Source: an uncultured delta proteobacterium
GTDB taxonomy: Bacteria > Desulfobacterota > Syntrophia > Syntrophales > UBA2185
Length of the DNA stretch: 64,000 nt
Assembly (NCBI GenBank): GCA_963695875.1
Contig: CAVOID010000015.1
Coordinates: 14,291-78,290 of the forward strand
Direction: 5' to 3'
In this document: positions 15,984-50,867 of the stretch, in pieces
Position numbering within the stretch: the stretch's first letter is position 1
Layout of the letters: the number at the start of each line of letters is the position of its first letter
Notes under the pieces: generated by a model
The model's database searches: none
Told to the model about the DNA's origin: nothing
The model's input: the letters and a program-made list of their open reading frames with translations, nothing else
Made by a program: the position numbers and the translations under genes

Positions 15984-18396
15984 ATGAAAATGAATAAAAC
16001 CTTTAAAAGATGCAGGGTCTCTTTCCGAAGGTTCATTCCTTTATCAGCTTTCTTATGTCTTTTCATGTTGGTTCCCGCTTTTGGAAGTCTCTTTATTGGT
16101 ACTGCCTTTTCATCGGAGGAATCGCCGGTTGTAAAGAATCCGGGTCTGAGTCCGAAGACATCAGGTTCGTCTGAAGGCCAATCGCCCGGAAAATATATAG
16201 ACCAGGGAGTCCTTTCGTTTGATCGGGGCGCCTTTGATGATGCCATTGTAAACTTCGAAGCTGCCATACGTTTGTGTGAGCAGGATACTAACAAGGTCAA
16301 GCAGTGCGAGGCACTAATAAGGCTGTCTCAGGCCAGTCATTTTACCGGCCAATACAAGAAAGCACTGCAAAGCTTGGAAAAGGCCATGACCATTGCAAGA
16401 GAATTGAATGACGGACATCAAATTGCCGCTATCTTCGGTTCCATGGGAAATGTCTATATCGGAATGGGTAATGGTAATTTGGCTTTAGAAAATTTGAATC
16501 AGGGACTCCTTATCGCAAAAGAATCAGGATATGTCAGATGTGACAGCTGTCATTCTGAACAATTTTGGGAACCTGTACGTTTCGCAGAACAAATATGATG
16601 ACGCACTCAATGCATATCGGGAAAGCGCTCAGCAAGCGAAGAAAGCGAAGAACATTTCGCTTGCAGTCCAGGCTGATATCAATGGGGCGACGGCCGCATT
16701 GAGAGGCGGTAAATATGCCGATGCCCGGAAGCAACTCGATAAGGCGGTGGGTCAACTTCGCAGTCTCGAAGATTCCTATGCCAAGGCTTACAGCCTCATC
16801 AACGCAGGCATTGTATACTCTGATCTTCGTGTGTATTATCCTGACCAAAAGCAGGTTCTTTTAAAGCAAGCTTACACTGCAATCAATGAAGCCCTTACTG
16901 TGGCCCAAAAGATAAACGACCAGAGAACAGTATCATATGCATACGGCTATCTCGGAAAACTGTATGAAGATGAACGTCAATATGAGGAGGCCCTCGAATT
17001 AACCAGACGGGCAATATTTGCGGCCCAACAGAAAAATGCAAACGAGGCTCTGTATAGATGGCACTGGCAGAGCGGACGGATTCTCGCCCATCTGGGTAAC
17101 ATAGATGAAGCAATTGTATCTTACAGAAATGCGATACATGACCTGCAGGCTATCCGGGAGGAATTTGCTTCCTGCTATGCCAGTCCTGAATCGTCCTACC
17201 AAAAAACCGCAAGTGTCGTCAGTTTTGAAATGGTGAAATTGCTCCTCGAGCGTGCCTCCGTGCTCCAGAAAGGGGAGGCTGTCGAGCCTTATCTGGTCGA
17301 AGCCCGTGAGGCTTTAGAAATCTTGAAGGTGTTTGAGTTGCGGGAGTACTTCAAAGACGATTGCGTGGATGCCGCCCGATTTGTTGAGAAAAAACTGGAT
17401 GTAGTTTCTGAGAAGGCCGTGGTAATTTATCCGATTCTGTTAGATGATCATGTGGAACTCCTGGTAAGCTTTTCAGGACGCCTCAAAAGATTTACACTCC
17501 CTGTGGGAGCAGTTGCCTTAACCAACGAGATCAGGGAATTCCGCAGAAAGCTCGAAAAACGAACCACAGGAGAGTACCTGCCCCATGCCCAGAAGCTTTA
17601 TGACTGGATCATCCGACCTCTCGAAAAAGACCTTAATTCTGTGAAAATTGATGCCGTTGTGTTCGTGCCGGATGGACCTCTCCGGACAATTCCCATGGCT
17701 GCGTTACACGATGGAAATAAATTTCTAATTAATCGTTACCCGGTTGCTATTACCCCGGGATTAAATCTTACGGATCCGCGCCCCTTCAAACGGGAGAACG
17801 CAAAAGTACTGGCCCTGGGGTTGACCGAACCCAGGCAGGGGTTTCCCGGTCTGCCCTATGTATCCGGTGAGCTCAAGGCTATTAAACAACTTTATGGAGG
17901 GCAGTTCCTGCTGAATGGGGAGTTCCGTGTGTCTAATGTGGAAAAAGAGCTGAAGAAGGAACCCTTTAGTATTGTCCATATAGCCTCGCACGGCCATTTT
18001 GGGGGGGACGTGGGTGATACATTCCTCCTGGCATTTGATGAAAAGTTCACTATAGATCGCTTCGGAGAGTATGTGGGTCTTTTCAAATTCCGTGATGAGC
18101 CCCTGGATTTACTCACATTGAGCGCATGTGAAACCGCCGCAGGGGATGACCGGGCAGCACTGGGCCTGGCTGGGGTTGCCATCCGGGCAGGCGCCAGGAG
18201 CGCTCTTGCAACACTTTGGCATGTCAATGATCCCGCATCTTATGAGTTGATCGTAGAATTTTACAAACAGCTACAGCATCCGTCTGTCTCGAGAGCCGCG
18301 GCACTCCAGGCAGCACAACTCAAACTGCTCGGAGATCTGCGCTACGATCATCCCGGTTACTGGGCGCCTTTCATTTTGATCAACAACTGGTTGTGA
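15984..18396 (+). CDS. Exported TPR-repeat CHAT-domain (caspase-like) protease; 1-nt indel near 16530
   Basis: N-terminal hydrophobic signal/anchor and TPR-like repeats. The CHAT catalytic dyad context is intact: VHIASHGHFGGD and LLTLSACETAAGD. ORFs 15984-16598 and 16531-18396 join at ...LLIAKESG|MSDVTAVILNNFGNLY. Confidence 0.85.
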
Positions 18397-21281: not shown

Positions 21282-22208
21282 ATGAACGAGAACGAGAGCG
21301 GGAAAAAGGGACTTACGGGGAGCAGAGTTTTCGGGCAATTGCCCAAAGAGAAGTGGGATGAGCTCACTAGGGCTATGGAGAACCAGGTGGTAGCACGGCG
21401 TACGATCATCTTCAGGCAGGGGGATCCAGGGGACAAGTTTTACATTATCCATTCAGGGAAAGTGAGGGTGTTCAGGAAGGACGCTGATGGATTGGAGACG
21501 GACTTGTCTTTGCTGGGAGCGGGTGAAAGCTTTGGTGAGATGGCCCTGCTGACAGGTGAGACGAGATCAGCGAACGTGGAGGCGGTAGAAGAGACCCGCC
21601 TAAAGGTGCTTTCCAAAGAGCAATTTGAGCTTATTCTGAAGGACTTTCCCCATATTTCCCTGGCCTTTGTGAAGCAGATGTCGGGATGGCTTCTGAGGGA
21701 TGAGAAGACCATTGAGAAGGAAGCGCAACAACTTTACCGGGCACATCACATATCCTGGTTTGATTTTCTGCTGGTGATCGGGGTGAGTGTAATTCTAGCC
21801 CTCGTGTTCAATAAGTCTAACCCGAACGGGATACCCCTGTTTCCGAAGTTTCCTGACAGGAAAGCGATTTCCGAGATCAGCGCTGCTCAGGCGATGGAAG
21901 AGGTGAAGAAGGGCGAAGCGCTCATCGTGGATGCTGGTCCTGAAGCCTTCTATGAAAAGAAACATATCCAGGGGGCGATCAGCATACCGCTCTCTCTTTT
22001 TGATATAGTGTATACGATGGCCTTTGGAGGGAATGAGAAGGGGAAAAAGGTGATTGTGTACGGAGGAACATTCAGCAAGCTCTATGATTGGGAGCTGGCG
22101 GACAAGCTCCTTCTTCGGGGGCATAAGGATGTGAAGGTGTTGGAGGGGGGGATGGCGACCTGGGAAAAAAAGGGCTATCCGGTGGAGGAGGAGAAAGGGA
22201 AGGAATGA
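21282..22208 (+). CDS. Cyclic-nucleotide-binding domain / TM helix / rhodanese-like domain protein (rhodanese lacks the catalytic Cys)
   Basis: cNMP-binding region reads [23 protein letters not shown]...[25 protein letters not shown] helix [20 protein letters not shown]. Rhodanese fold reads [24 protein letters not shown]...[10 protein letters not shown]...[15 protein letters not shown]. Confidence 0.8.
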
Positions 22209-22708
22209 TCCATACATTTCTAAAACAGATTGTGACGAGTCCGTATCTGGCGCTGATTCTGAGGGTGTTCGTGGGCTATATCTTTCTGTACGCTAGCGTG
22301 AGCAAGATACCGCACCCTGCGCAGTTTGCGGAAGCGACGGCAGCCTATCAACTGATCCCGTACTGGTTTCTGAATGTGGGGGCTATACTATTGCCGTGGA
22401 TCGAGTTTGTGAGCGGGCTGTTTCTGATCATCGGGCTGAGGACGAGGGCGGCGGCAACCCTCATCGGTCTGATGTTGATCATGTTCACCGTGATGGTCCT
22501 GACCAACATGTACTGGGGAGCGTCTATTACGTGTGGGTGTTATGATACGGTGGGGGAGCCTATTGGGTGGAAGAAGGTCAGTGAGGACATATTACTGCTC
22601 CTCTTCACGATACAGATTTACTTCTGTGACAGGTTGTTCATCTTCCGCAGGGGGGGCTTAATGCCCAGCATAAAGGGCATGGTCGCTACTCTGACAGGAT
22701 TGCAATAA
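22205..22708 (+). CDS. MauE/DoxX-family membrane protein
   Basis: Four predicted TM helices and the motif [12 protein letters not shown]. The start overlaps the upstream stop by 4 nt. Confidence 0.7.
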
Positions 22709-22716
22709 GGTGGCCT

Positions 22717-23082
22717 ATGATGCACACATCAAGATTTCAGGATTATGGATTGATGGTTGGTCTTTGCGTGCTTCTGATGCTTCTGCTCTCATGTGAGTCC
22801 AAGGATAAATACGCGGGAGTATACAAAGCGGTGGGGAATGAGTCGGTGAAGCAGGGGGAGACCGTCTTGGAATTGAAGGGGAATGGGGATGGTCTGTGGA
22901 GAGTGGCCTCTGATGAGGTAGCGGGAACCTTCGTAGAGGTCCCCTTTGTGTGGTACATCAAGCAGGGGGAGTTGCGGGTGAACACCAGAGCAGGGGGAGT
23001 GATTGTGGGGAAGATAGGGAAGGACACCATTCAGATGACCCTCCCAGGCTCCAAAGTGATGACCTTCAAGAAGATCCAATAA
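22717..23082 (+). CDS. Small lipoprotein, unknown function
   Basis: Lipobox LLLSC after a hydrophobic signal. 121 aa, 8 nt after the MauE stop. Confidence 0.5.
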   Translation: MMHTSRFQDYGLMVGLCVLLMLLLSCESKDKYAGVYKAVGNESVKQGETVLELKGNGDGLWRVASDEVAGTFVEVPFVWYIKQGELRVNTRAGGVIVGKIGKDTIQMTLPGSKVMTFKKIQ

Positions 23083-23108
23083 GTCCAGAGGTCGAATCTC
23101 GGAAGCAG

Positions 23109-23537
23109 CTATCTATTCCCATTGGGTTCGACTGGATACTTCGCTACCTCCCAGGCCCTCCATCCGCCCTTCAATGCGTATATCTTCTTGTATCCTTTCT
23201 CCATGAACTGCAGTGCCGCACGGGCACTGGTCGCTTCATCGTGTCACTTACAATAAAAAACTAATGTTTTCTCTTTTGGATACTTGTTGATCCAGGAGGT
23301 AAGATAGCGGACGTCCTCGTGAACAGCCCCCTTGATCTTGTTCTTGCTGTTCTCCCAGTCGTGGACCGTCCTCACATCGATAACGATGACATCGGGATTC
23401 ACAAGCTGCGCTTTCAGCCCATCAATAGACATCTTCTGCACACTCTCGGGGGTGAGCTCCGTCGCGGCGAAACTAACCGTTCCCGCGAAACCCACCGCAA
23501 GCACCATCAAGGCCAGAAAGAATACTGTTTTTCTCAT
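23109..23537 (-). CDS. Exported single-domain rhodanese, candidate selenoprotein (UGA at 23244-23246 read as Sec, motif CKU)
   Basis: ORF 23244-23537 ends ...TLVFYCK at TGA. The same frame continues HDEATSARAALQFMEKGYKKIYALKGGWRAWEVAKYPVEPNGNR to TAG 23109-23111, giving a complete rhodanese. The TGA sits at the catalytic-Cys position and a hairpin follows 14 nt downstream. Confidence 0.75.
23211..23229 (-). promoter_or_regulatory. Putative bacterial SECIS hairpin (mRNA CAGUGCC-CGUGC-GGCACUG)
   Basis: 7-bp stem with a 5-nt loop, starting 14 nt 3' of the in-frame UGA. Nearly identical in the paralog at 25931-25945. Confidence 0.55.
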
Positions 23538-23565
23538 TTATCCCTCCTTTTGCGCCGGTCAATTG

Positions 23566-23760
23566 TTAAGGGTTACTTCTTAAGTCTCTTCTCATATTTT
23601 TTGGAAGGTCATTTATGGCTACTGTAAGTAAATCGGCTGGGTTCTTGTCATGCTCAACGGCAACAAATCTTAGTTTCTTTATAAACGTGCTAATCAAGAC
23701 GAAATGATACCACTTTTCAGATAGTCTTGAGCGTGTATTAATCACCCCGCATCGCTTCAA
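23566..23760 (-). CDS. Hypothetical small protein between the two UGA-containing genes (TTG start)
   Basis: 64-aa ORF filling the gap 23763 to 23537. No recognisable motif. Confidence 0.2.
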   Translation of the reverse strand: MKRCGVINTRSRLSEKWYHFVLISTFIKKLRFVAVEHDKNPADLLTVAINDLPKNMRRDLRSNP

Positions 23761-23762
23761 GA

Positions 23763-24074
23763 TTACTGGATGATCTGCGGTTTCCCTTCGATCGGGAATT
23801 CTTGCTTGGCCAGACCCTCTACAATCTTCTCGATACTGGTTTTTGCATCGTCGAATTTTACCGTGACTTCGTGAGTTAATTGGTTCGCATCATATTGCAG
23901 CACGCCCGGGATTTCCTTCAGGGTAGCACGTACCCATTTAGCCGAGTCCGGTCACTCACATCCGGGAACTACCATTTTGACAATTCTTTCGGCAGCAAAA
24001 ATGGGTTGTGATGCGACGAGCAGGAACATCACACTCAAAAGACAGACGATCAGGGAATGTTTACTCCGCTTCAT
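23763..24074 (-). CDS. Exported HMA (heavy-metal-associated)-like protein, candidate selenoprotein (UGA at 23952-23954, motif GCEU)
   Basis: Not in the ORF track because it is split by TGA. Translation: MKRSKHSLIVCLLSVMFLLVASQPIFAA-ERIVKMVVPGCE-U-PDSAKWVRATLKEIPGVLQYDANQLTHEVTVKFDDAKTSIEKIVEGLAKQEFPIEGKPQIIQ*. SD GAGGGG. U aligns with the first Cys of the HMA GMxCxxC loop. Hairpin 16 nt downstream. Confidence 0.65.
23921..23935 (-). promoter_or_regulatory. Putative SECIS hairpin (mRNA GGGUA-CGUGC-UACCC)
   Basis: 5-bp stem with the same CGUGC loop as the rhodanese hairpins, 16 nt 3' of the UGA. Confidence 0.45.
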
Positions 24075-24693
24075 GGGTATTCCCCTCAATATTTTTGGGT
24101 TAGATTATACGGATGCCTCTTTCTAAGAGATGGGTCTTCTATACATAGTTTACATTTTTTATTTCTCAAACAAATTGGTTAAATCGGATAGAAGGGTTAA
24201 GTGGATAAGATATAAATGAACGAATATAATTTTATACTTATGTGAATTTATATAGTGATTCTTCTTCTATGTCAAGCTAATTTTGTCACTAAATATGTCC
24301 GGTATAGCTGTCGATTTCCACGAGTATGCTTGTGAGAGTTTTTCGATGATCGCTGGTAGATATCAGAAGGTCAAGCATTTGTATGAATTTCTCCCCGGTC
24401 TCATGATCTCTAAAAACATAGGGAGAATTCCGTTCTCTAAACTATATGTGCCAACAGAGTAGAAGATTACCGTTAAAAACATTCACTTTCACTGCCCACG
24501 TTATGGTACCTCATAAAAAATAAATCATGCCCCTTCTCTCTTTCAAAAATTACTCTCCGGTGGATGGAAGGATGCTCATATTGGGCAAAAGTCATATCTG
24601 GCAAAGATCAGGACGCATATTTTTTACAGCGAGCAAGGCTCCTCCATGCAGCCGGAAAAAGAAAATGATCAAAGAACCAGATGACCAAATAAC

Positions 24694-25197
24694 CTATTTG
24701 GCAGAACGCACCGGGAGAACCCGGCTGCTGATGACGTACGACTGGGGATTCCAACTCCGTTCGCCGTACCGGAAATTGAAGACGGCGGCGGCGGAATCGC
24801 GCGTCGCCGAGTTCCATAACCAAAAACAGGTAATATCTATCAACTCCGTTGCGATATGAATATTATAGCTTCGATTGCATGCTCCTGGACGGGATTTACT
24901 CGCATCATACAGCCCCATCAATTCATCCTGCGTTGGCATCCGCCAGTCCGTATAGCCGCCGCCGCGATAATTCTCGCAATAACTCTTGGCATCCGCCCAG
25001 TTTATGTTGCGTTCATTGTCCTTTGCCGCCCACATTAGGTTCGTCTGTGTGTCCAGGACCGTCCCATCATCATAGGCGATGAAACGACCGTCTCTGGCGA
25101 TCTCTCCGGCTGCGGCATATTCTGCAAAAACAAAAGTACCTATATAAAAAACCAACACCATTGCCGCAATGAAAAAGCCCTTTCTCAAGTCAGTCAT
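24694..25197 (-). CDS. DUF1566 (Lcl C-terminal-like) domain protein, membrane-anchored/exported
   Basis: Matches TNLMWAAKDNERNINWADAKSYCENYRGGGYTDWRMPTQDELMGLY. ATG 25197 has SD GAGGTGA; the ORF track start 25212 is 5 codons upstream. Confidence 0.7.
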   Translation of the reverse strand: MTDLRKGFFIAAMVLVFYIGTFVFAEYAAAGEIARDGRFIAYDDGTVLDTQTNLMWAAKDNERNINWADAKSYCENYRGGGYTDWRMPTQDELMGLYDASKSRPGACNRSYNIHIATELIDITCFWLWNSATRDSAAAVFNFRYGERSWNPQSYVISSRVLPVRSAK

Positions 25198-25281
25198 ACG
25201 TTCACCTCTCATAATTCTAATCTCTAGGGGTTAAATTTCCCTAAGCTTACTTCGCTCGTAAAGGACCCGAACCTTCAGATA

Positions 25282-25302
25282 CCCCGCAGCTTGCTGCCAG
25301 GG
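25282..25302. repeat. REP-like hairpin, copy 2 (CCCCGCAGCTTGCTGCCAGGG)
   Basis: Same GC-clamped AGC-TTGC-TGC palindrome core as 14031-14050, 56517-56536 and 56585-56604. Confidence 0.45.
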
Positions 25303-25835
25303 TAGTTCATTTTGTTTTTTCCACTAACCGCTTGGCTTTCCGGCGTTGCCACAGTATTTCAACGATGTATCCGTAGGCTCCAGCCACTCACAAAAATTGA
25401 CGGATGATTAAGACACAAAACCCCGCTCTCGCTTGAGAAACGGGGTTTCGATAAGCTCTTCATGGCACCACCCTTACAAAAAGGGTTCAGACTAGTTGTT
25501 AACCTTTTGACGATGCCCTATTTAAATATGATTATTTTTTGCTCTCAATTCTTTGAAAAGTCAAGAGACAAATTTCATTGATAATCATTTGAAAGGATGT
25601 ATATCTATCAAAACCACGGGACACTGCCTTCACCCTCAGAATCTATTATCCATGAGACCTAACGATTACCATTGTAAGAATCAATATTTCCCTAACATTA
25701 ATGGTTAGGAGGAAGTAGCGGATTATCGCTGTCACCCGAGAGCTGTGCAGATCAATTTGAAAGCGATTATCATGACAAGTCGCTAAGACGAAAAATCAAA
25801 AAACCTATTACCGAGGTTACAATAAGAAAATTAAT

Positions 25836-26267
25836 TTATTTAGGTTCGATTGGATACCCCGCATCCGTCCAGGCATGAAAACCACGCTTGAGGGCGCTTA
25901 CCTTTTTAAAGCCATTGTCCAATAATATCTGTGCCGCACGGGCACTTGTCGCTTCATCGTGTCAGGTACAGTATGTAATGATCTCTTTGTCCCTCGGCAG
26001 TTCGTTGCTTCTGACCTCCAGTTGAACTATGGGAATCCTGATGGCCCCTCTTATCCTGATCTTGCTATCGGCATATTCTCGTCCCGCTCGGACATCAACA
26101 ATCACTATGTCCTCACCTTTATCCATCTTAGCCTTCAGTTCCTGCACTGTGATTCTTGGAACTACATCGTCTGCAGATAAAACAACCGATACGATCAGCT
26201 GATTCAGTACACCGAAGAGCAGAGAAAGAAAGAGACCCTTTAAAAACCATCTCATCGCCATCCTCAT
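25836..26267 (-). CDS. Exported single-domain rhodanese paralog, candidate selenoprotein (UGA at 25962-25964, motif CTU)
   Basis: ORF 25962-26267 ends ...EIITYCT at TGA. The frame continues HDEATSARAAQILLDNGFKKVSALKRGFHAWTDAGYPIEPK to TAA 25836-25838. The 31 nt after the UGA differ from the 23.2-kb paralog at one position. Confidence 0.75.
25931..25945 (-). promoter_or_regulatory. Putative SECIS hairpin (mRNA GUGCC-CGUGC-GGCAC)
   Basis: Stem-loop 16 nt 3' of the in-frame UGA. The sequence is conserved with 23211-23229. Confidence 0.5.
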
Positions 26268-26399
26268 CTCATCCTTCCGGGGTAAAATGCTTCTTAATTG
26301 CTGTGTCTAAAACTTACTGAATAACAAGTCGAGATCCAGACTTTATTATAATGCATTAAGCCAGCTCAAAAATTGGGTGGGTCGTGGGTTGCTTGTTTA

Positions 26400-26885
26400 T
26401 TATTCCTTTTTTACTGAACGGGGGAAACAGCATTCCCAACTTGGCATACCATCTTCCTCGTTGCGAAGTTTCATGGTGAAATCACCCTTGCTTATTTCCG
26501 TGGCAATGATCGCATTACCATACTTCTTACCCCTTACTTCAACCTTGTCGCCGGCCATAAATTTGATCTTCTGATTTTCAATGAACCACTTGGGTCCCAT
26601 ATAGACGACATACTTGTTATTCTGATCCGTAATGAATCTCATCTGCAGACCGTCTTTCACACCTTTCATCGGCTCAACTCTCGTTACTTTACCGGGCTCC
26701 ACCACTATTGCTTCCATTCCCGTAAATGATGTCTCGGCATCAAGTCCGGGAACTCCCAAAGTCCATGCACCCCTTGATACAGGGCCCGAGGACTGAGATG
26801 CCTGAGCAAACAGCTCTGGTGCGAAAGTCATGCTCACCAAGAACATCATTGCAACTACAACCGTCCAACGTGCTACCTTTCTCAT
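26400..26885 (-). CDS. Exported protein of unknown function (upstream of rhodanese paralog 2)
   Basis: SD GGAGG before ATG 26885. Signal peptide MRKVARWTVVVAMMFLVSMTFAPELFAQA. The C-terminus reads ...PSWECCFPRS. Confidence 0.5.
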   Translation of the reverse strand: MRKVARWTVVVAMMFLVSMTFAPELFAQASQSSGPVSRGAWTLGVPGLDAETSFTGMEAIVVEPGKVTRVEPMKGVKDGLQMRFITDQNNKYVVYMGPKWFIENQKIKFMAGDKVEVRGKKYGNAIIATEISKGDFTMKLRNEEDGMPSWECCFPRSVKKE

Positions 26886-27320
26886 ACTTTCCTCCTTGGT
26901 ATCATTGTTTTGACCCACCCGATTTCGAGCTTAACGATTTAAAAAATGAACCTTCCATACCTCGTGACATCATCTTGTATCCCCTATGGGGTGATGATCC
27001 TGTCCAACACTCTGTTCTTTTTTGCGCAATCTGCAGGGATGGCTCCGGTACAAATAATATCTTTTGACTGCTATTAGTGTCAATCTCTAAATGCTGCATC
27101 ATGCAACAGTTTATAATCAGGTATAGACTGATTTGTGGCTTCGAAATTCCTGCAGTAATCGCCCAATGTTGCATACAGGAACGGAAAAGCCCGAAGCGAT
27201 TGAGTTGGCAAAATTGGCTTCGGGCTTCTCTGGAAACGACCGGCCTCAAAGAAGGAGGAGGCATGAAAACAAAATATATTTTAATTATAAGCCTTTAGAA
27301 AGAGTCAGTCAATCCTTTTT

Positions 27321-43091: not shown

Positions 43092-44241
43092 TTATCGCAT
43101 GCCTAAGAGCTTTCTCGAGATAACTACTCTCTGAATCTCGTTCGTGCCTTCATAAATCTGGCAGATCTTTGCATCCCGCATGTGCCTTTCGGCCGGATAC
43201 TCTTTGGTGTAACCGTAACCGCCGAATATCTGCACACCTTCAACGGATGCTCTCATCGCGACATCGGACGCATAACACTTTGCCATCGCCGATTCCTTCT
43301 CGTAATCAAGGTGATTATCCTCCATCCACGCGGCGCGAAGGAGCATCAGCTCCGCTGCATCAAGCTCCATTGCCATATCGGCAAACTTGAACTGGATTGC
43401 CTGGAAGGTCGAAATCGGCTTACCGAACTGCACTCTTTCTTTTGCATAAGCGAGGGCATCTTCCAGAGCGGCCCGACCGATACCGCAGGCCTGGGAACCT
43501 ATTCCGATCCTTCCCGCATCGAGCCCCATCATCATCTGCTTGAAACCCTGGCCCGGCTTACCGAGGAGATTTGCCGCCGGTATCTCGGCATCCTCAAAGA
43601 CCAGTTCCGCCGTTCCGGACGCCAGGATTCCCATCTTCTCCTCGATCTTTCCTACTTTAAAACCAGGGGTGTTCTTCATGTCCACGATGAGATTGATGAC
43701 CCCCTTGTATCCTAATGCAGGATCTGTCGTGACAGCCAAAACGCAGTAATGGGCTACATTGCCGTTCGTTATGAAGATTTTGGTCCCGTTGACAATATAT
43801 TTGTCCCCCTTCAATACGGCCCGGCACTTGAGCGCAGCGGCATCCGAACCGGCGCTGGGTTCCGTTAAGCCATAGCAGCCTTCAACCTTTCCGCTTGCCA
43901 CCGGCGTCAGGAACTTCTTCTTCTGCTCTTCCGTACCAAACGTCAAGACCGGATATCCGTACAGTGAATTGTTGACGGAGACAATGACGCCACAGCTTCG
44001 CGCAGGCCTTGGAAATCTCAATCATGCACAGAACATATGTCACTACATTCATGCCCGCCCCGCCGTATTCCTGCGGTACGGCGACGCCCATGATTCCCAT
44101 CTCGCCCAGTTTGCGGCAGATCTCTTCCGGATGCCTGTGGGTTTTGTCCAGATCTGCGGCGATCGGTTTAATCTCCTGCTCCGCAAACTTTCTTACCATA
44201 TCTCGCACATCTCGCTGATCTTCTGTCAATCCAAAATTCAT
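43092..44241 (-). CDS. Short-chain (butyryl-CoA-type) acyl-CoA dehydrogenase; 1-nt insertion near 43997
   Basis: ORFs 43882-44241 and 43092-44021 join as ...MIEISKACA|SCGVIVSVNNSLYGYPV. The C-terminus reads QIYEGTNEIQRVVISRKLL. Confidence 0.85.
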
Positions 44242-46082: not shown

Positions 46083-47341
46083 CTATACCTTGATCAACAT
46101 CGCATCACCCTGGGCATGACCCGAACATATTCCGCATATTCCTATACCACCGCCTCTACGCCGCAGTTCATAGGCCAGCGTCATGACGATTCTGGCGCCC
46201 GTAGCGCCGATCGGGTGGCCATATGCAATAGCACTTCCGTTCACATTGATCCTCTTGAACATGTCTTCTTTAGTCATTCCCAGAATACTTCGCGCACTTA
46301 CGAGCACTACAGCTGCAAATGCCTCATTGATCTCGATGAGGTCAATCTTATCGAGTGTCATATCATTCTGCTCCAGAATCTTCTTGATGGAGAGCCCCGG
46401 TACCGTTGCTATATCCTTCGGAGGCTGAGAGACCTCGGCGTAATCAAGTATGGTAAACAGAGGCTTTATCTCCAGTTCATCAGCCTTTTCCCTGCTCATA
46501 ACCAGACAGACATCACCGCCGTCATTCACGCCCGGCGCATTACCGGCTGTAACACTGCCAGGATCTACCGGTAACGGGACTTTTATGGTTGAAAACCGGC
46601 GGCAGTTTGGCCAAGCCTTCCATGGTCGTTTCCGGCCGCGGACCTTCATCTTTATCAAAGATGATTATCTTTTTCCCCTGTTTTACCTCGACAGGAAATA
46701 TCTCATCATCCAGCTTCCCCGTCTTCATGGCCTCCACAGCTGCCATCTGCGAACGCAGAGCCCACTCATCCTGATCCTGCCGTGTAATTCCGAATTCATC
46801 ACCCACTTCCGAGCCGTGAACAGCCATATGCCGGTTATAGAAAGCATCCCACAGGCCGTCGTAAACCGTCAAATCGATGACTGACCGACCGGGAAGGCCC
46901 ATCCTCACGCCCCATCTCATTTCGGGAAGAGCATACGGACCATTGCTCATGCTTTCCTGGCCTCCGGCAACGCAAATCTCAGCCCTTCCCAGTTGAATCA
47001 TCTGGACCGCCAGATCGATTGGTTTGATGCCCGAAGAACATACCTTGTTGATTGTAATGGAGGGAACGGATTCCGGAAGACCCGCCAGAATTGTCGCCTG
47101 CCGGCTGGGAATCTGCCCGCAACCGGCGGGTACAACCTGCCCCATGAAGACATAATCCACATCCGAAGGCTTGACCTTTCCGTTTGTCCGCCTGAGAACC
47201 TCCTTAATTGCCAGAGCTCCCAGTTCGGGAGCGGTAAAGTCCTTCAGCGCTCCGCCGAATCTGCCGTACGGCGTCCGGCATGCCTCTACGACGACAACTT
47301 CTCTGAAATTTCCTGTACTGATTTTTTATCTTCCGCCCCAT
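46083..47341 (-). CDS. Acetyl-CoA acetyltransferase (thiolase); two 1-nt homopolymer insertions (about 46581-46584 and 47322-47327)
   Basis: Reads EVVVVEACRTPYGRFGG, active-site NKVCSSGIKP, and C-terminal NVNGSAIAYGHPIGATGARI...GICSGHAQGDAMLIKV. Removing one A from A4 and one from A6 restores a single ORF starting MGRKIKISTGNFREVVVV. Confidence 0.8.
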
Positions 47342-47649: not shown

Positions 47650-48809
47650 CTATTTCAGACTGTTTAAAATATCTCTGGCAATAATCATTCTTTGTATCTG
47701 GTTGGTTCCCTCATAGATTAACGTAATCCGGACATCCCTTGCGTAACGTTCAACGGGGAATTCTTTGGTGTATCCATACCCCCCAAGCATCTGTATAGCA
47801 TTGAAACACGCCCTATCCGCTGCTTCCGTCGCGTAATACTTTGCCATGGATGCTTCTCTTGCAAAGGGTTTGCCTGTCTCTTTTTTATACGCGGCATTCA
47901 TAAGGAGGAGCCTCGCCGCCTCCAGCTCCGTATAGGATTCCGCAATCATCCACTGGATAGCCTGAAAATTCGTTATCGGCTGGTCAAACTGCTTTCTATC
48001 CATGGCATATCGTGTGGCATAATCCATCGCAGCAAGTCCGATACCCAAGACCAAGAGATCCGATACCGATACGTCCACCCGCCAGTTCCCCCGTGGCTGT
48101 CTTGAAACCGCCGTTCAATTTCCCCATAAGGGCCGATTTCGGTATCCGACAGTCTTCAAAGATGAGTTCGTTTGTCACAGAAGCGCACTGCCCCATTTTA
48201 TGCTCTTCTCTTCCAACGGTGAGACCGGGGATGCCATTTTCCACCAGAAACGTGCTGATGCCGCTGCCCTTTTTTGCTGTCTTATCGGTCACTGCCCAGA
48301 CAACGAACACACCCGCATATTCAGCGCTGGTAATGAACATCTTATTACCGTTAAGAACCCATTGATTTCCATCAAGGACAGCAGAGGTCTGGAGCGCGGC
48401 AGCATCGGAACCCGCCACGGTTTCAGTCAAACCAAATCCACCGGCATAGTATTCACCCGAGCAAATCTTCGGGATGTACAACATTTTCTGCTCTTCGGAG
48501 CCAATAGCCTGAATTACCTCACAGACCATGTTATTGACCGACATGGTCACTGCCGTAGAAGCACAGGCCCTTGCAATCTCTGTGACCGCCAGACTGAAGG
48601 CCACAACACCTGCTTCAGAGCCTCCATATTCGACTCTTCACATTGATGCCCATCAAACCGAGCTCGGCAAGTTTCCTTAAATTTTTCAAGAAGGTTTCAC
48701 GATCGCCAACTTGGTCCAGCTTTGCCGCTACAGGCTCAAGCTCCGTCTTTGCGAAGCGCCTTGCTGTGTCTTGAATGATTATTTGCTCTTCTATCAGTTC
48801 TAAATTCGT
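47650..48809 (-). CDS. Second acyl-CoA dehydrogenase; two 1-nt indels (about 48051, about 48637); ACG at the expected start position
   Basis: Pieces join as TNLELIEEQIIIQDTARRFAKTELEP...GINVKSEYGGSEAGVVAFSLAVTEIA...GGRIGIGSL|VLGIGLAAMDYATRYAMDRKQF...IYEGTNQIQRMIIARDIL. Confidence 0.8.
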
Positions 48810-48890: not shown

Positions 48891-49796
48891 TCATTTTTCA
48901 ATAATAGCCTTGATCACAGGCGGATATTCCGTCTTTGCAGGCAGGAAGATCAGCTCCGGATCAACAAACTCTCTGAGGACGAATAGTTCTTTGTAAGTCG
49001 GATTTGGCGTTTCACCCTTAACTTTTGAAACATTCAAGTCAAACCCGCAATTTTCTTTGACCTTCTCCACAGTGACACTGGGGTGTAAGGTTTCCAGGTA
49101 GATGATTCCCTCTTTATCAAACCGGTATACGCCCATATTGGTCACTACTCCCACCGGCCCACAGTCCGCATAGGGCGTCCCTTTCCAGACTTCCTTCTTC
49201 GGTTTCCATTCCCTTGTCTTGAAATCCCAGCACCACCAGCCCGGTGTTGTGGTATAATCATTCCTCTCCAGAAACCTCCTTTTCTCCTGGAGGATGATGT
49301 AGGCGACCCTTTTCGACATGGTTCCTATGTCGGAATTTCCTCCGGAACCTGTGAAGCGGTGTGCCGGGGCATAGTAATCACCGATCGATGTAACATTCAC
49401 GCCGCCGTATTTGTCGATAGCGGCGCCTCCGAGGAACCCCAGGGTCACAAAACCCTGCTGCAAATAATACCCAAAGGTATCCACCAATCCTCCAAGGGTG
49501 GAACACATATTGGCCGCCCTCTGGTCACTCACAGACATGGGCACATGCATGGTTTTCCCGTCACATATCCCGGATTCGTAGATCAACACCGCATTCGGTG
49601 CATTCAGCATATTGGCCGCCATAATCCCCACCATGGGAAGTCCCGTACCGGCAAAGACGACATCATCGTTCAGAACCTCATGAGCAATGGCAATCGCCAT
49701 TAATTCGGGCAGAATAAATTCACCTGCCTTTGCTTTCTCATCGGGCATCTTATCGATTAACTCCATCAATTCTTCCATCGATTTAGCCATTTTCAT
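48891..49796 (-). CDS. Family-I CoA-transferase, subunit B (glutaconate CoA-transferase-like)
   Basis: SD AGGAAAGGGGGG before ATG 49796. Reads LMAIAIAHEVLNDDVVFAGTGLPMVG...IYESGICDG...FTGSGGNSD. Confidence 0.75.
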   Translation of the reverse strand: MKMAKSMEELMELIDKMPDEKAKAGEFILPELMAIAIAHEVLNDDVVFAGTGLPMVGIMAANMLNAPNAVLIYESGICDGKTMHVPMSVSDQRAANMCSTLGGLVDTFGYYLQQGFVTLGFLGGAAIDKYGGVNVTSIGDYYAPAHRFTGSGGNSDIGTMSKRVAYIILQEKRRFLERNDYTTTPGWWCWDFKTREWKPKKEVWKGTPYADCGPVGVVTNMGVYRFDKEGIIYLETLHPSVTVEKVKENCGFDLNVSKVKGETPNPTYKELFVLREFVDPELIFLPAKTEYPPVIKAIIEK

Positions 49797-49810
49797 TTCC
49801 CCCCTTTCCT

Positions 49811-50867
49811 TTAATAACCACTTCGAGCTACGGATAAAGGCATCTTCATCCTGGGCGCCGGGTTCTTTCCCCGCATCATCCTGGTGCTGTATCCGGTGGT
49901 GCTGTCCGCTTTGAGAGACAACAGTTTCTTTGCACCGAGCTTCACAACGAAGTCTTCCCAGCTCTTCGGACCAAAGACCCATTCATCGAGCCATTTTTTC
50001 AAATCCTCTGCGTTTCTTGATGCTTTATCCATCTCCCTCATAAACGGTGCGTCATAGTCATAATAGAAAGGGACACCGCTCGGAAAGGCTCCCCAGGGCA
50101 CTTCCACAATGGCATCAACGGTAAAGAAGGGAATCTGATTGGCTTCAGGTTCCTTCCTCATCTCCGCCTCGGGAACGATCTCTTCGGCAGTGATGACAAC
50201 CTTGTCGCAGGCAAAGGCGATTTCCTTATCAATCGTACCTACACCGCGCCACCGCGCCGTACCCTTATCACCCACCTGTGATACGTGGATGATTGCCAGT
50301 TCGGGCCTCGCTGCGGGAAGAAGGACAACATCCCCATCGCCAAAGAAGGGTTCTTCAATCTGTATGAATTTTTTCTTCGAAATTCTCGGATTCTTACCGG
50401 TTCTGAGACCTGCTTTCCCCAGTGCATCATAGTCCGGATTGTAGAGGTCCGATCCCAATGGTGCATAATAGGGAATGAATGGCGCTCCGATGGCGCCGGC
50501 AAGGAATCTCATGGCCATGGAGCCGTGAGAGTAATCCTCAAGGATTATCTTTCCTGCCTTGTAGATCCTTTCCATGTTGATGTCGAGTTTTCCCGCCATC
50601 TCCCCCCAGCCCATCCAGTCGGTTTCATAAATCTTAATGGCGCCGACGGTATTAAGGAGCCAGGTGCAGCAACTGCCATGCCTGTCGATAACATGCAGGT
50701 CTTTGAATCCCTGCCTTACTGTCTCCCAGGCAAAGGCCATCGGATTTCTGTTAAACCCCGTAAACCCGCTGAAGGCACACCTGGATTCCGTTATGCATGT
50801 ATTTCTTGACTGCTTGTTCAAGGGTCATAATTTCAGCTTTTTTAGCTTTTCCGCGAATTCTCGCCAT
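49811..50867 (-). CDS. Family-I CoA-transferase, subunit A; 1-nt insertion near 50778
   Basis: MARIRGKAKKAEIMTLEQAVKKYMHNGIQV| joins |AFSGFTGFNRNPMAFAWETVRQGFKDLHVI. SD AAAGGAGGAAG. Confidence 0.75.

Follow-up and report, generated by a model that had tools for sequence, protein, structure and literature searches.

An in-frame UGA probably read as selenocysteine in a putatively exported rhodanese of an uncultured Syntrophales bacterium, with a paralogue and a MerP-like neighbour that also carry in-frame UGA codons

Rhodanese-U gene 1 occupies positions 23109..23537 on the minus strand of the window, i.e. the whole 64-kb stretch of DNA analysed here, and comprises 142 codons followed by TAG. 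A ribosome-binding site, AGGAGGG, is located 5 nt 5' of its ATG. The ORF called in this frame (23537 to 23244) ends with ...LVFYCK and is then interrupted by TGA (23246..23244), which corresponds to residue 98. Beyond this codon the frame remains open for exactly 44 sense codons, HDEATSARAALQFMEKGYKKIYALKGGWRAWEVAKYPVEPNGNR, and closes with TAG at 23111..23109. Read-through gives a rhodanese of 142 aa that starts with a predicted signal peptide, bears the motif FYC96-K-U98-HDEATS and contains a complete PF00581 Rhodanese domain (54.9 bits, residues 39-130). An earlier reading, made from the sequence alone, had described an ORF that stops at TGA and stays open for 44 further codons, which supply the missing half of a rhodanese domain; the stop and the open frame were both found as described, on the minus strand, and the full PF00581 match bears out the completion of the domain.

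The predicted Sec-type signal peptide of gene 1, as read from the sequence, spans 23466..23537 on the minus strand (MRKTVFFLALMVLAVGFAGTVSFA, with cleavage before A), and an N-terminal hydrophobic segment is common to the homologues. A structure model of P0023, a true Cys orthologue, was used to stand in for the gene 1 protein. In this AF2 model the N-terminal 46 residues have pLDDT < 50, the domain is modelled with pLDDT > 90, and all of the top PDB matches are rhodaneses.

The UGA is followed by the hairpin CAGUGCC-CGUGC-GGCACUG (23211..23229, minus strand), which begins 14 nt past the codon. Its stem has 7 bp, its loop is 5 nt long with G second and U third, and the distance from the UGA to the apical loop is 21 nt. 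The published constraints for bacterial SECIS elements (bSECIS) are: (i) a loop of 3-9 nt on a stem of 4-16 bp, (ii) a G within the first two positions of the loop, (iii) a distance of 16-37 nt from the UGA to the apical loop and (iv) a minimum free energy <= -7.5 kcal/mol (PMC13188914). The gene 1 hairpin agrees with all four, with a folding energy of -11.3 kcal/mol when taken alone; for the UGA together with the following 45 nt the energy is -16.5 kcal/mol (z = -1.9 versus shuffles).

The hairpin is also maintained across the family. In an alignment of 92 sequences, 99.8% of 460 stem cells were paired, and compensatory changes, with both sides altered, were found in 4 of the 5 stem pairs (e.g. 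pair 21-33 is U-A in 51, C-G in 36 and U-G in 5 sequences). The observed pairing was not approached by any of 500 shuffles or in any slid register. The loop G (position 26) is invariant (92/92) and the next base is either U or G. Two homologues with TGC in place of the TGA have broken stems, namely L004 (C-A at pair 21-33) and L045 (G-A at pair 20-34), the latter also having the loop G replaced by A. As the hairpin lies within the coding sequence, over codons for Ser (AGY), Ala (GCC), Arg/Ser/Gly/Trp (NGN) and Ala (GCR), it encodes a conserved peptide, T-S-A-[RSGW]-x-A; third-position entropy falls here to 0.64 bits, a sign that the RNA itself is constrained. Thus, the proposal that a SECIS element is present at the expected position is upheld by the four bSECIS constraints and by covariation. 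Rfam searches returned no SECIS family match in the whole window at the gathering score and no bacterial SECIS family match in 23000-26400 at E <= 10.

Gene 1 is a member of a catalogued family and does not represent a new kind of system. With U written as C, its product scored 160.9 bits against NCBIfam NF041203 ('rhodanese_LYCAU', "rhodanese-related (seleno)protein"), the curated cut-off being 115. In a 2026 review the family appears as "rhodanese-like form 3, CxU", a predicted selenoprotein for which a 2005 prediction is cited, and is filed under 'predicted with high confidence'. The sequence-only reading had proposed a C-K-U selenoprotein and had pointed to Sec-containing rhodaneses in computational surveys; the proposal is supported by the NF041203 match and by the literature motif CxU, with one selenocysteine (Sec). 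In the literature consulted we found neither experimental proof of Sec insertion for any NF041203 member nor a functional or biochemical study of the family.

We compared 97 homologous copies (80 loci from species-representative genomes, other loci fetched and the window itself), mostly from Thermodesulfobacteriota and Nitrospirota. The Sec column is TGA in 94 copies and TGC in 2 (L004/P0023 and L045), so the suggested Cys/Sec pairing at this column is real. It had been reasoned that the reading would fail if the homologues all terminated here. They do not: in all 94 TGA copies the frame runs on without a stop for no fewer than 39 codons (39-48 or more), and 88 of them keep a GG[WF]xxW-type motif. 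Downstream of the UGA, entropy is 1.6 bits at third codon positions versus 0.87-0.95 at positions 1 and 2, which is the signature of a coding sequence. The upstream Cys (C96 column) is nearly invariant among the homologues, and fusion to an octahaem cytochrome c occurs in two of them. It was also observed that six homologues have Sec at the position of the upstream Cys as well (U-x-U).

More than 470 relatives of the family were found among species-representative genomes. Most of the homologues are stored in databases as stubs of 87 or 97 aa (including P0001-P0008), as anticipated from the truncation of gene 1 by standard ORF calling. The 'full-length' records P0009, P0017, P0019 and P0022 show W at the Sec column because the gene caller switched to genetic code 4.

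A second copy, rhodanese-U gene 2 (25836..26267, minus strand; 143 codons and TAA), is located 2.7 kb from gene 1 and bears the motif TYC-T-U-HDEATS. The two genes share 36% amino acid and 52% overall nucleotide identity. Gene 2 matches PF00581 (58.3 bits) and, with U written as C, NF041203 (123.7 bits, cut-off 115). Its UGA (25964..25962) and the hairpin GUGCC-CGUGC-GGCAC (25945..25931) lie within 25931..25964 on the minus strand, and over 36 nt counted from the UGA it is identical to gene 1 at 35 positions. The hairpin has a 5-bp stem, the loop CGUGC, a 21-nt spacing and an energy of -7.9 kcal/mol, in agreement with the bSECIS constraints. The region folds no better than its shuffles (z = +0.22); its support comes from conservation and not from thermodynamics. 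A terminator-like match at 25945..25931 was rejected as a terminator, since it consists of the SECIS followed by a chance A/T-rich stretch within the ORF.

An in-frame UGA is also present in a gene located 226 bp upstream of gene 1 on the same strand (23763..24074, minus strand), which encodes a putatively exported MerP/HMA-like protein with the motif VPGC-E-U-P. The UGA (23954..23952) is followed by the hairpin GGGUA-CGUGC-UACCC (23935..23921, minus strand). The loop CGUGC is thus identical in the hairpins of all three UGA genes, which lie within 3.2 kb. The TGA and a conserved hairpin were found in the window and in all 4 homologues whose DNA was read, and C-x-C forms of the protein also exist. 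No curated selenoprotein model matches the protein above its cut-off, and the selenoprotein table of the 2026 review has no entry for PF00403; this C-x-U candidate selenoprotein therefore appears to be uncatalogued. Its pairing with rhodanese-U is kept in L001 and is seen in close relatives only, while in L086 and L087 the HMA-U gene adjoins a Prx-U gene. A scan of the window for in-frame TGA codons gave 78 candidates with long flanking frames, among which the three genes reported here alone combine a suitable hairpin with homology.

The window contains no selA, selB, selC or selD: a tRNA scan returned only tRNA-Lys, and Pfam or NCBIfam scans of about 55 window ORFs revealed no SelA, SelB or SelD. 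Sec decoding in the source genome is therefore assumed. In one genome of the family set, L036, a tRNA-Sec (Rfam RF01852, 75.1 bits) is located 5 kb from the rhodanese-U copy, beside uvrB, rmuC and dusB and with no adjacent sel genes.

The in-frame TGA could be explained in other ways. It might be a true stop, with gene 1 being a truncated pseudogene or encoding a 97-residue half-domain, and with the downstream frame being a relic. It is true that gene callers terminate at this codon, hence the 87- or 97-aa stored products, and that other broken genes occur in the window. A relic would decay, however, whereas the TGA is shared by 94 of the 97 copies over many bacterial families, and the frame behind it is always open, varies at third positions as coding sequence does and retains the rhodanese motifs. 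Moreover, a 97-residue product would leave the rhodanese fold unfinished, as it would lack the helix and strands needed to complete it. We regard a true stop as very improbable. That an original TGC/TGT (Cys) or TGG was misread in sequencing or assembly deserves a thought, as the window has split, frameshifted genes (a thiolase, an acyl-CoA dehydrogenase and a CoA-transferase, each in overlapping halves), and so its assembly appears indel-prone and is not error-free. The faults seen are frameshifts and not substitutions, though, and the same TGA recurs in gene 2, in about 90 other genomes and in L001 and L002, relatives with 92% identity that were obtained from separate samples; an error is hardly credible. 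The reassignment of UGA to Trp (code 4) or Gly (code 25) might be suggested by the W stored at this column in P0009, P0019, P0022 and P0017. These W residues nevertheless correspond to TGA on short contigs that cannot be translated to the stored protein under table 11, and thus are a gene-caller artefact. In addition, TGA is the ordinary stop of 12 of the 34 well-supported (Pfam-matched) window genes, so the organism is not a code-4 or code-25 one, and a codon change would need no dedicated covarying hairpin. The chance of such a reassignment is negligible. Based on these observations, we suggest, with a probability of about 0.9 and on sequence grounds, that the in-frame UGA of gene 1 is a Sec codon in a member of NF041203.

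Little separates the two window genes from the catalogued family. They share with it a length of ~140 aa, the Y-C-x-U motif, the position of the UGA, the type of SECIS and the taxonomic range (Thermodesulfobacteriota and relatives). The family takes its name from the A between C and U, where gene 1 has K and gene 2 has T. Nothing essential differs, the window being distinguished by two diverged copies that share a near-identical 36-nt SECIS patch.

The rhodanese fold is shared with GlpE and PspE of E. coli and with 6mxv. In ungapped comparison with these proteins the U column falls on the catalytic Cys, and the spacing of the G-Y and GG[WF]xAW motifs is the same. Rhodanese-U differs in having Sec in place of Cys, an extra conserved Cys two residues upstream, and an acidic loop (H-D-E-A-T) where those of GlpE, PspE and 6mxv are neutral or basic. 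The GlpE model gave 35.4 bits for gene 1 and 33.9 for gene 2, below its cut-off of 102, and the PspE models matched only gene 2, again below their cut-offs (24.0 versus 102 and 20.6 versus 126.3 bits). Like rhodanese-U, Sud of Wolinella succinogenes (1qxn) is exported, consists of a single rhodanese domain and occurs in an anaerobic respirer, and the two proteins resemble each other at the level of sequence (E = 9.8e-8 with the 1qxn profile) and of structure. Unlike rhodanese-U, Sud has one Cys and no Sec; no polysulfide reductase genes were found beside the rhodanese-U genes of the window. TsoB (NF045694, UxxxxU), a rhodanese/DsbD fusion-like selenoprotein, combines a Sec-containing rhodanese domain with a DsbD-type membrane module; several rhodanese-U homologues have a DsbD_TM gene directly upstream, the modules here being encoded separately and not fused. 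TsoB differs in its motif and number of Sec residues, and the single-domain products of the window scored 33.0 and 32.5 bits against NF045694, far below its cut-off of 805.

The sequence-only reading had placed the UGA exactly on the catalytic Cys, and this stands in part. It agrees with ungapped alignments to 1yt8 and to each of the two domains of 6mxv, whereas gapped alignments to 6pfz and YnjE put C96 there. From U98 to the GY motif there are 16 residues, as in the alignments with 6mxv and 1yt8; GlpE, aligned by hand, has the same 16-residue spacing to its GY motif. On the other hand, the secondary structure of the P0023 AF2 model puts C96, not U98, at the canonical catalytic position. The nucleophile at the first position of the six-residue loop is accordingly U98 by the ungapped alignments and C96 by the gapped ones and the AF2 model. 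The loop after U is acidic (H-D-E), unlike those of the aligned thiosulfate sulfurtransferases, and its E is invariant in a six-sequence alignment (A2), with only D or N replacing it among the 97 copies.

By analogy with the established bacterial Sec pathway, the following mechanism may be proposed. While the ribosome reads the mRNA, SelB-GTP-Sec-tRNA(Sec) would bind the hairpin 14 nt past the UGA, which consists of a 5-7 bp stem with a 5-nt loop of the form N-G-[U/G]-N-N. SelB would then bring Sec to the UGA, competing with release factor 2, and translation would continue through 44 codons to the TAG. Sec-dependent export and cleavage of the signal peptide would yield a periplasmic protein of ~118 residues whose rhodanese active-site loop holds a Cys-x-Sec pair. 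Its selenol would probably act as the nucleophile and cycle with the neighbouring Cys through a selenenylsulfide. Our best guess is that rhodanese-U serves as a periplasmic Cys/Sec redox or sulfur-carrier module and not as a classical thiosulfate:cyanide sulfurtransferase, a functional reading that is much less certain than the Sec codon itself.

A conventional periplasmic thiosulfate/polysulfide sulfurtransferase like PspE or Sud, working through a selenopersulfide with the upstream Cys as a bystander, is a possible but doubtful alternative. The fold matching GlpE, PspE and Sud, the export common to Sud and PspE, and the occurrence in sulfur- and metal-respiring anaerobes would all suit such an enzyme. 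The scores with the GlpE and PspE models are far under their cut-offs, though, and conserved acidic residues after U would be unusual for anion binding. The near-invariance of the upstream Cys and its replacement by Sec in the U-x-U homologues argue for a two-residue redox pair, and the DsbD-type neighbours and cytochrome fusions point to electron transfer. It seems less likely still that the rhodanese and the MerP-like C-x-U protein have a periplasmic role in the handling of soft metals or metalloids (Hg, As, Se, Te), e.g. as a selenol-based reductase or a selenium carrier. The adjacency of the HMA C-x-U gene, kept in L001, would speak for it, as would a weak match to the chromate-resistance protein ChrE (33.4 bits), which belongs to the rhodanese superfamily. 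The superfamily also includes the Cdc25/Acr2-type arsenate reductases. Furthermore, many predicted selenoproteins are tied to metal or metalloid resistance according to the 2026 review. Against this, the pairing is confined to close relatives and gives way to a Prx-U partner in L086 and L087, and no mer, ars or chr genes were found within the window.

Returning to the redox or sulfur-carrier module, we tentatively propose that the 3.2-kb cluster constitutes a periplasmic selenol relay, in contrast to a sulfurtransferase working alone, and that the MerP-like protein founds an uncatalogued selenoprotein family, although we would not count on it. If this were the case, the two C-x-U rhodaneses and the MerP/HMA-like C-x-U protein would act together on a soft metal, a metalloid or a sulfur species, either binding or reducing it, and the U-x-U variants together with the fusion to an HAO-like octahaem cytochrome would mark the rhodanese family as an electron-transfer module. 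As NF041203 was already known as a predicted selenoprotein family, gene 1 is a correct but ordinary member of it. Nevertheless, public gene calls, almost without exception, truncate or mistranslate both gene 1 and its paralogue, and the selenoproteomes of soil and sediment anaerobes are therefore under-counted. Judged from sequence, the C-x-U/U-x-U pair, the acidic loop, export and the links to DsbD and multihaem cytochromes may make the family a reasonable target for selenium's role in periplasmic redox.

The neighbourhood of rhodanese-U is variable, the best non-self cluster occurring in 8-9 of 86 loci, and as a guide to function it was dropped because it was too variable for a decision. A DsbD-type transmembrane protein gene lies directly upstream of rhodanese-U in 6 loci, and MauE/DoxX is found nearby in 8. 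In the window, a convergent three-gene unit (21282..23082, plus strand), which is kept beside rhodanese-U in close relatives, encodes a cNMP-binding protein whose rhodanese domain lacks Cys (21282-22208), a membrane protein of the MauE/DoxX type (22205-22708) and a protein of 121 aa that matched no family (22717-23082).

Gene 1, a rhodanese gene on the minus strand, begins with ATG at 23537, preceded by AGGAGGG, and ends with TAG at 23111..23109. Its first 97 codons run up to ...KTLVFYCK and are followed by TGA at 23246..23244, past which 44 further sense codons, HDEATSARAALQFMEKGYKKIYALKGGWRAWEVAKYPVEPNGNR, remain open before the TAG, as the sequence-only reading had described when it proposed a selenoprotein with a C-K-U motif. 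With U read as C, the product has 142 residues and contains a signal-peptide-like segment at its N-terminus, ahead of a complete Pfam Rhodanese domain. The read-through protein matches NCBIfam NF041203 ('rhodanese_LYCAU, rhodanese-related (seleno)protein') with 160.9 bits against a curated cut-off of 115; scores to the GlpE and PspE models lie far under their cut-offs. The NF041203-type family is listed in two reviews (PMC9312934, PMC13188914), both citing for it the bSECISearch paper that Zhang and Gladyshev published in 2005, and the 2026 review places it in the category 'predicted with high confidence' (PMC13188914). The sources consulted yielded no experimental study of this family. Gene 1 adds a member to a predicted selenoprotein family that had been catalogued before and, for that reason, is on its own of modest interest.

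A homologue scan in which a single genome stood for each GTDB species found over 470 relatives; the 80 best loci belong to Syntrophobacterales, Syntrophorhabdales, Geobacteraceae, Desulfobacterales, Desulfatiglandales, Nitrospirota, Methylomirabilis and others. Local tblastn across all loci gave 97 copies, with TGA at the UGA column in 94 and TGC in two, which confirms the suggested Cys/Sec pairing; the last of the 97 is a paralogous domain that lacks the Cys. One of the TGC copies is a true Cys orthologue (P0023, on contig L004). Past the UGA the frame stays open in all 94 TGA copies, for 39-48 codons or, in two fusion proteins, for at least 133, and a GG[WF]xxW-type motif is kept in 88 of them. 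In this stretch entropy is much higher at third codon positions (1.60 bits) than at first and second ones (0.87-0.95 bits); therefore the region downstream of the UGA is translated. Standard ORF calling does truncate the gene, since the proteins called for close relatives in public databases are nearly all stubs of 87 or 97 residues, ending at the same ...YC[KA]. The few 'full-length' database entries carry W at the UGA column; as the contig codon is TGA and these stored proteins disagree with the table-11 translation of their own contigs, the W is an artefact of gene callers that changed to genetic code 4.

The 7-bp hairpin noticed earlier, CAGUGCC-CGUGC-GGCACUG, is present at 23229..23211 (minus strand), starting 14 nt past the UGA. 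According to the bacterial SECIS model, the apical loop has 3-9 nt with a G in its first two positions, the stem 4-16 bp, the UGA-to-loop distance is 16-37 nt and the MFE is no higher than -7.5 kcal/mol (PMC13188914); the gene 1 hairpin agrees on all four points (7 bp, loop CGUGC, 21 nt, -11.3 kcal/mol). In an ungapped alignment of 92 distinct sequences (UGA plus 42 nt), the core stem of 5 bp (columns 20-24 against 30-34) forms pairs in 99.8% of 460 cells, with two-sided changes in four of the five pairs; for instance, 51 sequences have U-A at pair 21-33, 36 have C-G and five have U-G, and none is unpaired there. None of 500 shuffles matched the observed pairing and covariation, and every slid stem register falls to 20-55% paired. 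The covarying bases are synonymous third positions of Ser (AGY) and Ala (GCR) codons, and third-position entropy drops to 0.64 bits within the hairpin. All 92 sequences have G as the second loop base, followed by U (74) or G (18). The loop-encoded residue varies (R, S, G or W) among NGN codons only, as would be expected if the RNA and not the protein were constrained. In both TGC homologues the stem is broken, by C-A at pair 21-33 in L004 and by G-A at pair 20-34 in L045, where the loop G is also replaced by A; such decay would be expected after replacement of Sec by Cys.

Two further UGA genes, both on the minus strand, lie nearby, and the loop CGUGC is common to all three. The second rhodanese gene, paralogue 2 (26267->25836; NF041203, 123.7 bits, cut-off 115), has the motif TYC-T-U-HDEATS. 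It shares 36% protein and 52% nucleotide identity with gene 1 overall, whereas from the UGA through the hairpin 35 of 36 nt positions match. This near-identical patch in two diverged paralogues, which points to gene conversion or to a SECIS tuned to the SelB of the host, is among the more interesting peripheral material.

Between the two rhodanese genes, and co-directional with them, sits the HMA-U gene (24074->23763; UGA at 23954..23952), encoding an exported MerP/HMA-like protein (PF00403 in homologues) whose motif VPGC-E-U-P shortens the usual CxxC to C-x-U. Its hairpin, GGGUA-CGUGC-UACCC (23935..23921), begins 16 nt past the UGA. The homologues on L086, L087, L088 and L001 all have TGA and the same hairpin, and their database copies contain W or stop at ...PGCE. 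The Cys forms P0047, P0048 and P0050 read C-x-C, and the contig encoding P0047 (L089) is without the hairpin. None of the curated selenoprotein models scored above its cut-off against the HMA-U protein (NF041115 UxxU, 21.8 versus 95), nor did MerP TIGR02052 (41.8 versus 92.55), and PF00403 is missing from the 2026 selenoproteome table (PMC13188914). The gene possibly represents an uncatalogued small selenoprotein family, and is more interesting than gene 1 itself. On two metagenome contigs (L086:1038-1562, L087:656-1210) the HMA-U gene is adjoined by an AhpC/TSA peroxiredoxin gene with an in-frame TGA (FTPV-U-TGE), a known Prx TxxU selenoprotein type that the gene caller split into two ORFs.

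An alternative genetic code, reading the UGA of gene 1 as a standard amino acid, is excluded because 12 of the 34 Pfam-supported genes of the window end in TGA. A sequencing error is contradicted by the same TGA in paralogue 2, in two 92% nucleotide-identical relatives from different samples (L001 and L002) and in about 90 other genomes. A decaying pseudogene, in turn, is incompatible with a TGA, an open frame and a C-terminal motif that are conserved among homologues, and with the coding-type variation at third positions. The family match, the conserved TGA and the SECIS constraints make it almost certain that this codon stands for selenocysteine, and the sequence-only reading was right in observation and interpretation alike. 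The tRNA scan and profile scans of ORFs found no selA, selB, selC or selD within the 64-kb window; the three UGA genes with like hairpins, together with a tRNA-Sec located 5 kb from a family member in L036, lend Sec decoding indirect support.

In six family members (L013:2005, L026:245, L034:5944, L047:8292, L052:8274, L062:8247) a second TGA stands two codons ahead of the one at the catalytic column (Y-U-x-U), and one hairpin would be at distances of 21 and 27 nt from the two UGAs. Both reviews give the family the motif CxU and one Sec (PMC13188914, PMC9312934). Two U-x-U members (L062:7905-9578, L026:2-1573) carry an in-frame fusion with a cytochrome c domain, which is about 400 residues long and has eight CXXCH motifs. 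In L062, the one scanned against NCBIfam, the rhodanese domain scores 156.8 bits with NF041203 and the cytochrome part gives a weak hydrazine-dehydrogenase/HAO-like match (61.6 bits). These fusions suggest that the Sec pair exchanges electrons with the haems, and with the U-x-U variants they also rank among the more interesting peripheral finds.

If decoding follows the pathway established for bacteria, SelB with its Sec-tRNA(Sec) would bind the apical loop as the hairpin leaves the ribosome and insert Sec at the UGA of gene 1. The product would be a single-domain rhodanese in the periplasm, about 118 residues long and carrying a Cys-x-Sec pair. The two residues of this pair probably form a selenenylsulfide redox couple, or else the protein is a sulfur carrier that works through its selenol and is kept reduced from the membrane; a classical thiosulfate:cyanide sulfurtransferase is less likely. 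We infer this because the upstream Cys is nearly invariant in the family and is itself Sec in the U-x-U members, because octahaem cytochromes form part of two homologues, and because DsbD-type and DoxX/MauE proteins recur nearby. The surroundings vary across 86 loci: a DsbD-type transmembrane protein is encoded directly upstream in six, MauE/DoxX occurs near the gene in eight and a multihaem cytochrome in five. The loop past U, H-D-E-A-T (E is invariant in the six-sequence alignment A2, with D or N as its only substitutes, in some of the 97 copies), is acidic, unlike the anion-binding loop of rhodaneses; this and the low GlpE and PspE scores fit the redox or carrier role.

On the claim that the UGA falls exactly on the catalytic Cys, the alignments disagree. 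Those to 6mxv (both domains) and 1yt8, made with HMMs and free of gaps, place U98, the UGA-encoded residue, on the canonical Cys, in agreement with the 16-residue spacing to the GY motif, whereas gapped alignments to 6pfz and YnjE place C96 there. In the AF2 model of the Cys orthologue (domain pLDDT >90), the strand ends one residue before the upstream Cys and the helix starts six residues later, which likewise speaks for C96; the model's top PDB matches are rhodaneses throughout, including GlpE, Sud and SseA, and the model confirms the predicted rhodanese fold.

Convergent to gene 1 is a three-gene unit, kept beside the rhodanese gene in L001, L002 and L006. One of its genes (21282-22208, plus strand) encodes a cNMP-binding protein that also contains a membrane segment and a Cys-less rhodanese-like domain; the others encode a MauE/DoxX membrane protein, whose gene overlaps that one by 4 nt, and a 121-aa protein. 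As G-G-T replaces the catalytic C-x-U, this rhodanese domain is presumably inactive or regulatory. Upstream of paralogue 2 lies a gene for a MamS/MamX-like exported protein (26918->26400, minus strand), 70.7% identical to an L001 protein matching PF26390, and a gene past paralogue 2 encodes an Lcl_C-domain protein (25212->24694, minus strand). Compared with L001:8616-9387, window positions 24254-26934 hold about 1.9 kb extra between the MamS/MamX-like and HMA-U genes, containing paralogue 2 as well as the Lcl_C gene, which L001 has upstream of the MamS/MamX-like gene instead. Elsewhere in the window, genes at 46083-47160, 47650-48604, 48891-50821, 15984-18396 and 43092-44241 are split into two overlapping ORFs (acyl-CoA dehydrogenase, CoA-transferase, a TPR/CHAT protein, and thiolase, which is divided into an N- and a C-terminal half), and look like assembly-indel frameshifts or pseudogenes.
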